Shown here piece by piece: positions 15,072 to 15,856 of a DNA stretch of 64,000 nt; position 1 is the first letter of the stretch, and the number at the start of each line of letters is the position of its first letter. The DNA lies in the IMG/VR virus record IMGVR_UViG_3300028888_000044, positions 259,539-323,538 of that record. One strand, 5' to 3'. Under the pieces are notes generated by a model. It made no database searches. It had not been told where the DNA came from and was given only the letters and a program-made list of their open reading frames with translations. The DNA is from a virus. Taxonomy: Duplodnaviria; Heunggongvirae; Uroviricota; Caudoviricetes. A program made the translations under genes and the position numbers.

Positions 15072-15146
15072 AGAGAGTTAGCTCAGATGGTTTAGAGCAT
15101 CTGCCTTACAAGCAGAGGGTCGTGAGTTCGAATCTCACACTCTCTA
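15072..15146 (+). tRNA. tRNA-Val(TAC)
   Basis: AGAGAGT/ACTCTCT; TCTGC-CTTACAA-GCAGA. Confidence 0.92.
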
Positions 15147-15149
15147 CAA

Positions 15150-15441
15150 AGATAAAAGATGTAAGTTAAATGTTGGCTTGGAGGTAGCCATCATCTAAGG
15201 AGTGAGCAGAAAGTGCCTTGTGAGCCTTATGCGACTAGGAGTTAATAGCCTAGAACGTTCTTGACTGTGAAGGGAATATCCACAACATGACATTGTAAAC
15301 TCAATGGTCTGCCATATAAAGTTAGGTATTAGTCCTCCTTTATTCTTTATATGTTGGCAGTATGGCGAGGTTATGAACTCAACTTGCGGTAGGACATACG
15401 CGGTTTCTTTGGTGTAACAACACATAACTTTACTTTTATCT
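15150..15441 (+). ncRNA. mimic of 23S rRNA GTPase-associated centre (H43/H44, uL11 site) with 208-nt insert
   Basis: ATGTTGGCTTGGAGGTAGCCATCATCTAAGGAGT (15170-15203) and GTGTAACAACACAT (15412-15425) align to 23S nt 1057-1090 and 1091-1104 with compensatory changes; long closing helix AGATAAAAG..GTAAGTTA/TAACTTTAC-TTTTATCT. Confidence 0.8.
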
Positions 15442-15659: not shown

Positions 15660-15735
15660 GGTATGTTAGTTCAGTTTTGGTTAGAATGCGGCCCTGTCAC
15701 GGCTGTGGTCATGGGTTCGAGTCCCATACATACCG
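15660..15735 (+). tRNA. tRNA-Asp(GTC)
   Basis: GGTATGT/ACATACC, G73; CGGCC-CTGTCAC-GGCTG. Confidence 0.9.
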
Positions 15736-15748
15736 CATAAACTACAAA

Positions 15749-15856
15749 GGTGACATAGTTTAATGGAAGAGTCCTAGGACATTAAATGAAAAACTTACTC
15801 GAAGAATGACCCCATATAGGGGGTTGGTAGGCGTTCGATTCGTCTTGTCACCGCCA
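15749..15856 (+). ncRNA. tRNA-like RNA without a canonical anticodon arm, encoded CCA
   Basis: GGTGACA/TGTCACC-G-CCA; AGGCG-TTCGATT-CGTCT; extended TTTAATG/CATTAAA arm; GACCCC/GGGGTT arm. Confidence 0.6.

Follow-up and report, generated by a model that had tools for sequence, protein, structure and literature searches.

A candidate structural mimic of the ribosomal GTPase-associated centre encoded among phage tRNA genes

The element described here is a 292-nucleotide (nt) stretch of phage DNA whose two ends, as read from the sequence, rebuild the H43/H44 domain of 23S ribosomal RNA (rRNA), part of the GTPase-associated centre (GAC), to which protein uL11 binds and with which the translation GTPases make contact. 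It lies at positions 15150-15441 of a 64,000-nt stretch (hereafter the window) covering positions 259,539 to 323,538 of IMG/VR record IMGVR_UViG_3300028888_000044, a complete-looking phage record of 387,538 bp with 34% G+C and 27 tRNA genes. Relatives of the element keep both the secondary and the tertiary pairs of the rRNA domain through compensatory changes, which bears out the original prediction, made from the window alone, of a selected structural mimic as opposed to stray rRNA. The fold, including its tertiary contacts, is under selection across a large phage family. The element may well be a gene for a stable non-coding RNA that acts in trans, away from the ribosome, and offers a host ligand the GAC fold.

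Structure of the element

The two rRNA-like halves were found where they had been predicted. The first, 15170-15203, corresponds to A1057-U1090 (E. coli numbering, used throughout), and the second, 15412-15425, corresponds to G1091-U1104. A long helix of ~17 bp closes both. The parts of the element, preceded by the adjoining tRNA gene, are as follows.

15072..15147 (+): tRNA-Val(UAC), directly upstream, its 3' end 2 nt ahead of the closing helix
15150..15169 (+): 5' strand of the H42-like closing helix, which has bulges and ~17 bp; 1051-1055 have their counterparts at 15164-15168
15170..15194 (+): H43 equivalent, 1057-1081, with stems 1057-1059/1079-1081 and 1062-1064/1074-1076, U1060, and a 9-nt loop containing G1067, G1070 and U1072
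15195..15203 (+): junction CUAAG, 1082-1086 (a C-G pair closing a 3-nt loop), and GAGU, 1087-1090, the 5' strand of the H44 base
15204..15407 (+): insert domain, 204 nt, between U1090 and G1091, with a 3-bp closing stem and several hairpins
15408..15411 (+): UUUG linker from the insert to the H44 hairpin, the sequence signature of the family
15412..15425 (+): H44 hairpin and 3' strand, 1091-1104, with G1091-C1100, U1092-A1099, a sheared G1093.A1098 and the loop UAAC
15426..15441 (+): 3' strand of the closing helix, pairing with 15150-15169

Within the 3' strand of H44, A1101 faces U1090 and C1102 faces G1087. The H43 string of E. coli, searched at <=3 mismatches, has a single match in the window and no match in 100 shuffles that preserved dinucleotides. 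The whole 387-kb record contains the element only once. The absence of other rRNA nearby, already remarked on in the original prediction, holds for the window and extends to the entire 387-kb genome, in which no large-subunit (LSU) rRNA match was found at E<=10; the element is not part of a 23S rRNA gene. A 76-amino-acid open reading frame (ORF) runs antisense through window positions 15195-15425 (-), wholly within the structured RNA, and is most likely no gene.

A family of bipartite elements in phages

The search for the same bipartite element in related phages, which had been proposed as a check, was productive. Viral contigs scanned with the H43 core yielded 55 loci, made up of one true 23S rRNA, one unrelated sequence and 53 family elements. 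All 53 share sequence through GAGU (1090) and then diverge, and in all of them YUUUGGCGUANNAGCACAC follows 41-365 nt further on and is itself succeeded by a stretch complementary to that preceding H43. A second scan, for the 3' signature, returned at least 120 loci. Together the two scans yield at least 100 distinct elements in viral contigs, all with a GAGU-insert-UUUG-G junction and with inserts of 41-365 nt; counts out of 100 given below refer to the distinct elements among the matches listed. The family is larger than the elements collected. The window copy shows the same junction, in which GAGU is followed by an insert with its own closing stem, then UUUG, then GYGUNNNARC with A1101.

Cultured carriers include Pseudomonas phage UNO-G1W1, Aeromonas phage 4_4572, Erwinia phage Kaldavass and Cronobacter phage GAP32. 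The window element gave no match when used as a BLAST query against GenBank phages, and a more typical relative was needed as query. Elements of cultured phages are found in GenBank at the following positions.

L331: PP551948.2, 70501-70608
L333: PQ464595.1, 96522-96614
L329: JN882285.1, 289502-289794

In UNO-G1W1 the element lies between tRNA-Trp and tRNA-Arg, and a small coding sequence (CDS) annotated as 'hypothetical protein' overlaps it antisense. In Kaldavass a CDS overlaps the element on the sense strand, and in GAP32 the element is unannotated. The small CDSs over the UNO-G1W1 and Kaldavass elements are probably spurious. Being either unannotated or hidden under doubtful small ORFs, the GenBank elements have been missed by annotation pipelines. 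A separate case is Paenibacillus phage Pd_22F (L330, MZ092003.1, ~83976-84010 onward), which carries genuine contiguous 23S rRNA (GAGUGCGUAAUAGCUCACUGGUCGAG...) and not a mimic; this stretch stems either from host DNA that entered the assembly or from a real capture.

Among 185,579 bacterial and archaeal species genomes, 114 pattern matches were obtained. Thirty-four are real elements, mostly on contigs of metagenome-assembled genomes that may be phage DNA, and the remainder is close to the chance expectation for 16 fixed bases. Rfam 15 contains no match to the element or to the loci of 16 relatives, also at permissive thresholds, and a rRNA-like motif goes unmentioned in a catalogue of ~10,000 candidate viral structured RNAs (PMC10690425). 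With no description in Rfam 15 or in the literature searched, the family is apparently undescribed so far.

Conservation and covariation of the fold

The search patterns fixed many bases, and for this reason the conservation of each half was measured only in elements retrieved via the other half. Eight positions are invariant in 78 of 78 elements (U1060, A1077, A1084, A1085, G1087, A1088, G1089 and U1090), and G1059, G1063, U1066 and G1071 are present in 77 of 78. The linker UUU is invariant, and its G is present in 18 of the 19 distinct 3' halves retrieved via the 5' pattern alone, independent of insert class. That the same UUUG occurs regardless of insert argues for a single origin of the insert-bearing family. 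At position 1101, where rRNA has a conserved U, 99% of the family has A, which allows U1090 and A1101 to pair at the new junction.

The stems are maintained with very few exceptions. The H43 pairs 1057-1059/1079-1081 and 1062-1064/1074-1076 are kept in 97-100 of the 100 elements; 1057-1081 is canonical in all of them with two pair types (A-U in 86, C-G in 14), and 1058-1080 is canonical in all with six; both pairs covary. The closing helix, which directly flanks 1055 and 1104 in the window as elsewhere, covaries over 1047-1055/1104-1112 with all four Watson-Crick types. Among the 100 elements covariation is seen at 1051-1055/1104-1108, where 1051-1054/1105-1108 likewise take all four Watson-Crick pair types.

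The tertiary contacts show similar behaviour. The tertiary pair 1082-1086 is U-A in 44, C-G in 42 and A-U in 9 elements; the window has C-G. For both this pair and the closing helix, 0 of 1000 shuffles reached the observed mutual information, a figure that is not a probability, as the permutation tests ignore relatedness; greater weight attaches to how many independent pair types occur. At the base triple 1072.(1092-1099), 94 elements have C.(C-G), 5 have U.(U-A) and 1 has U.(U-G). The triple of the window element is U.(U-A), that of L279, a close relative with a near-identical insert start, is C.(C-G), and the two thus differ by a coordinated three-position switch. U1060-A1088 is the pair hydrogen-bonded by Gly130-Thr131 of L11 (PMC2175356). 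Both nucleotides are present in the window and invariant in the family (78 of 78), where they may form the corresponding pair.

Comparison with ribosomal GACs

The bacterial consensus and its structure were taken from the Rfam LSU model aligned to a genuine 23S fragment (L045). Deletion of the insert, as had been proposed for an alignment to LSU rRNA, would discard a part that is obligatory in the family and a conserved folded domain here. The 5' half differs from the LSU consensus only at 1058 (with its partner 1080), 1067, 1070, 1072, 1082 and 1086, and the 3' half at 1092, 1097, 1099, 1101 and 1104. Four of these sets are pairwise compensatory (1058/1080, 1082/1086, 1092/1099 and 1055/1104), and 1072 shifts together with 1092-1099. 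The five compensatory changes originally named are all present, namely 1055-1104 as A-U, 1053-1106 as U-A, 1052-1107 as G-C, 1082-1086 as C-G and 1072.(1092-1099) as U.(U-A). The GAGU at 1087-1090 is no departure from rRNA but its common bacterial form, and the GAAA of E. coli is the variant.

The GAC of 23S rRNA from Bacteroidota, a candidate host group (three isolates and nine Bacteroidales genomes), reads GGAUGUUGGCUUGGAAGCAGCCAUUCAUUUAAAGAGUGCGUAACAGCUCAC, with minor variants in two. Its G1067 and C1097 recur in the window element, which lacks the additional U that follows 1078 in the Bacteroidota sequence and differs at 1070, 1072, 1082/1086, 1092/1099 and 1101. On account of these differences and the missing U, the element is not a recent capture from a Bacteroidota-type host. 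Its G1067 may reflect the rRNA of the host, which is only a lead. In a check on the host, the tRNA-Leu intron region gave only short, weak matches to 301 Bacteroidales genomes. Strict tracking of host rRNA by the family was considered and rejected, as the Pseudomonas phage copy has G1058-C1080, a pair absent from the enterobacterial and most Bacteroidota GACs compared; this rejection leans partly on the GAC of Pseudomonas 23S rRNA, which we take to be E. coli-like.

A different class of phage sequence consists of Bacteroidota-type GAC copies without an insert, found in viral contigs at the following positions.

L321: 6620-6640 (-)
L323: 11671-11691 (-)
L322: 1983-2003 (-)
L324: 2625-2645 (+)

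These copies have G1067 and the extra U after 1078, carry their own closing helix, lack UUUG and are not near tRNA genes. L322 is without the H44 hairpin. L324 is identical to Bacteroidales 23S rRNA at 59 of 62 positions, and two of the three differences form a compensatory change of G1091-C1100 to A-U. The insert-less copies look like separate, more recent captures. Together with the insert-bearing family they indicate that the rRNA domain was acquired by phages more than once, and this repeated acquisition argues that the GAC fold itself is useful to phages.

That capture of this kind occurs, as L324 illustrates, also speaks for regarding the window element as a functionless captured rRNA fragment, or as a rRNA piece split by a group I intron. 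The boundaries have some resemblance to those of such an intron (U...G), with U as the last base on the 5' exon-like side and G as the last base of the insert. However, the same U...UUUG junction surrounds inserts of 41-54 nt, which are too small for a group I intron, and no match to Intron_gpI (RF00028) was found at E<=10, while real group I introns were detected in the neighbouring loci L020 and L029. The intron was rejected on these two grounds. The compensatory changes show purifying selection and the inserts have no significant similarity to 23S rRNA. Both forms of this reading are largely refuted already, and we consider them hardly tenable.

The insert domain

An insert between U1090 and G1091 is always present in the family and has its own covarying closing stem. 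Beyond this, inserts have little in common. The 100 elements fall into 65 insert sequence clusters, ranging from plain hairpins of 41-54 nt to domains of more than 300 nt, so the GAC halves are what all elements have in common and the inserts are unrelated in sequence. Inserts of the window type mark a subfamily with 15 distinct members, found in large phages. RNAalifold applied to the insert columns of these 15 predicts 52 pairs, 21 of them with two-sided compensatory changes. The closing pair of the insert is seen as A-U, G-C, C-G and U-A, and one hairpin reads CAUUG/CAAUG in most members and CAAACU/AGUUUG in others. The window insert is therefore a conserved folded domain. An alternative RNAalifold structure, in which AAGGAGU pairs with the insert's 3' end, was rejected; it breaks in L161, while the 3-bp closing stem covaries (A-U/G-C/C-G/U-A). 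The insert has no Rfam match at E<=10 and shows only noise-level similarity to 23S rRNA, compared over model positions 1-2522, a span without the sarcin-ricin loop.

Four members of the window subfamily are remodelled. Their H43 loop is shortened (GGCGUAGWAAGCC) and another hairpin (GCCUUGAAAGGGAC) stands in for H44; the stems, the CUAAAGAGU junction and the insert are retained.

L083: 4722-4945 (-)
L162: 2913-3136 (+)
L280
L284

In a 409-kb phage a remodelled copy is accompanied by a canonical element 855 nt away. The remodelled copies are the best evidence that the insert has a role of its own and that the canonical loops can be given up, at least in that lineage.

These observations also lend some weight to a reading in which the GAC fold is only a compact scaffold that presents the insert domain as the working part, with no ribosomal ligand. 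Compact motifs such as T-loops and tetraloop receptors are reused elsewhere. The insert is obligatory, being present in 53 of 53 non-rRNA matches of the 5' pattern; that of the window is conserved with its 21 compensatory pairs; and the remodelled variants keep it, one complete genome having that form alone. A scaffold would nevertheless be a curious explanation for inserts that are unrelated, and in some cases plain hairpins, set against near-invariant GAC halves. It would have no need for identity to rRNA at ~30 positions, including U1060 and A1088, and GAC copies devoid of an insert have also been taken up by phages. We regard a pure scaffold as rather unlikely.

Genomic context and possible partners

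The window element lies between tRNA-Val and tRNA-Asp (15660-15736), within an array of 24 tRNA genes on the same strand. Just past tRNA-Asp, at window positions 15749-15853, is a weak tRNA match of 105 nt (RF00005, 34.5 bits) that was not called by ARAGORN; it may represent a tRNA-like element or else a tRNA gene that contains an insertion. The association with tRNA genes is general. The 100 elements have, within 2 kb, 325 tRNA or transfer-messenger RNA (tmRNA) genes on their own strand and not one on the other, and 30 of the elements start within ~30 nt of the end of a same-strand tRNA (2 nt in the window). Around the window element neither a terminator-like site nor an excess of promoter-like sites was seen. 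The RNA probably owes its 5' end to tRNA 3' processing, and we infer, as the simplest reading, that it is co-transcribed with the tRNAs and released by the tRNA-processing enzymes.

Such a position inside a polycistronic tRNA array could also suit a cis-acting or uL11-responsive element that controls neighbouring genes or the processing of the tRNA transcript. Leaders of ribosomal protein genes that mimic rRNA sites are an established regulatory principle, and a uL11-responsive switch was among the functions originally proposed. However, no downstream gene is conserved and the largest cluster of neighbouring proteins covers 8 of the 100 loci, all from related phages. The flanks are tRNAs, a tmRNA or unrelated ORFs, and no terminator or helix sequestering a start site was seen. 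Control in cis is thus very improbable, and the proposed switch is not supported by this setting in tRNA arrays.

Proteins were surveyed in 50 carrier records, of which 28 have a completeness of at least 90%. A uL11 gene and a RelA/SpoT domain are absent from all 50, and 3-4 encode bL12, elsewhere in the genome. With no phage uL11 and no recurrent neighbouring protein, any protein partner would have to be host-encoded. In part of the window subfamily an ORF of 69-70 amino acids resembling a zinc ribbon (CxxC...CxxC) lies 87-89 nt downstream of the element, at the following positions.

L083: 4483-4692 (-)
L159: 11591-11803 (-)
L160: 11448-11660 (+)
L162: 3166-3378 (+)

This ORF was considered as a partner and rejected. 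It follows the element in five subfamily loci and has no homologue in the genome of the window, a pattern that reflects synteny and not partnership.

Possible function

The RNA would be transcribed together with the phage tRNAs and probably cut out by the enzymes that process them. Its ends would then be joined by the long helix and would fold into the GAC (the end of H42, H43 and H44), with the lineage-specific domain projecting from H44 between U1090 and G1091. Away from the ribosome, such an RNA could offer the GAC fold to whichever host component ordinarily recognises it, and the C-terminal domain of host uL11 would be the most likely partner. uL11 is the first candidate because its RNA determinants, with the invariant U1060-A1088, are the best-conserved part of the mimic, and because the phages encode no uL11. 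More tentatively, the RNA might hold uL11, or a factor that docks on the uL11-RNA surface, and so alter the control of host translation in the course of infection. Less uL11 on ribosomes could, for example, weaken the activation of RelA and lower RelA-dependent alarmone synthesis. The original prediction had also suggested that uL10 might be sequestered. Sequence is not conserved in the closing helix, which is without the AGACA / GuCgAG elements conserved in H42 (Rfam consensus), so the uL10 site is not reproduced and this part of the proposal finds no support.

We give an about even chance to the general proposition that a trans-acting RNA replica of the GAC is carried by phages of diverse lineages and hosts and captures either host uL11 or some factor or enzyme able to recognise the uL11-H43/H44 surface. 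Several observations weigh against it. The predicted folding energy of the whole element is ordinary (z = -1.66). The loop tips, which in the ribosome provide the thiostrepton and EF-G contacts, are looser than in rRNA. A1067 is replaced by G in ~12% of elements, and A1095 and A1096 differ in 3 and 7 of 19, respectively. The window itself has G1067, as does Bacteroidota rRNA, and keeps A1095. A complete phage of 412 kb has solely a remodelled copy, which implies that the canonical GAC loops are dispensable in that lineage. uL11 sits in ribosomes, and the size of the free pool available for titration is a weak point.

A serious rival is that the RNA serves as a decoy for agents that attack the GAC, soaking up an enzyme or small molecule of the host's defences or of a competitor (a Tre23-type ADP-ribosyltransferase or a thiopeptide) and so sparing the ribosomes. 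Enzymes that target the GAC do exist. Tre23 ADP-ribosylates H44 at bases 1095-1098 and blocks the GTPase activity of EF-G (PMC8661411). The location of the element among phage tRNA genes, the conserved fold and the failure to find a phage-encoded partner would all suit a decoy. However, no part of the mimic varies more than the H44 loop 1095-1097, at which Tre23 acts. Thiopeptide binding requires A1067 and the N-terminal domain of uL11 (PMC2175356), whereas the G1067 of the window is the thiostrepton-insensitive state. No anti-phage system aimed at the GAC turned up in the literature searched, and we know of none. A decoy of this type is unlikely on balance.

If the preferred reading of a trans-acting replica is true, the family would be the first viral decoy of a rRNA domain and would add a new layer of phage control over translation and the stringent response. 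Binding of uL11, or of a factor that recognises the GAC, would provide a new route by which to tune translation, the stringent response and resistance to ribosome-targeting weapons. It would also provide RNA structural biology with a natural and varied set of GAC folds with tolerated insertions. The cultured carriers make the family experimentally accessible.

Relation to known RNAs

Copies of tRNAs and genes for some ribosomal proteins are known from viruses. The literature searched describes no functional centre of rRNA that exists as a conserved copy encoded on its own. The nearest comparison is the bacterial 23S GAC itself (E. coli 1051-1108, the 58-nt uL11/thiostrepton domain), which has the same secondary structure and near-invariant core, and whose 1082-1086 pair, 1072.(1092-1099) triple and U1060/A1088 nucleotides are all present in the mimic. 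Unlike the ribosomal domain, the mimic is free-standing, in a phage tRNA array of a genome without rRNA, and a generic helix replaces H42. An obligatory helix or domain followed by UUUG stands between 1090 and 1091, A1101 takes the place of U1101, and the loop tips (1067, 1095-1097) are relaxed, the window copy having G1067, G1070 and U.(U-A).

The mRNA leaders of ribosomal proteins, such as the L10 leader (RF00557), are cis-regulatory, lie upstream of their own protein gene in cellular genomes and imitate only local features of rRNA. The L10 leader resembles the mimic in being an off-ribosome RNA that reproduces a protein-binding site of the same stalk-base region. The mimic differs in being a separate phage gene with near-identity to rRNA, tertiary pairs included, and with no ribosomal protein gene nearby. 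ROOL (RF03087) and GOLLD are, like the mimic, phage-borne structured RNAs found beside or within tRNA arrays. Neither has a match in the window or in the loci of the 16 relatives, and the mimic is smaller and has a rRNA-derived core. The insert-less phage copies (L321/L323, L322 and L324) lack the insert, the UUUG and the tRNA array of the mimic and share with it a free-standing H42-H44 domain closed by a helix of its own.
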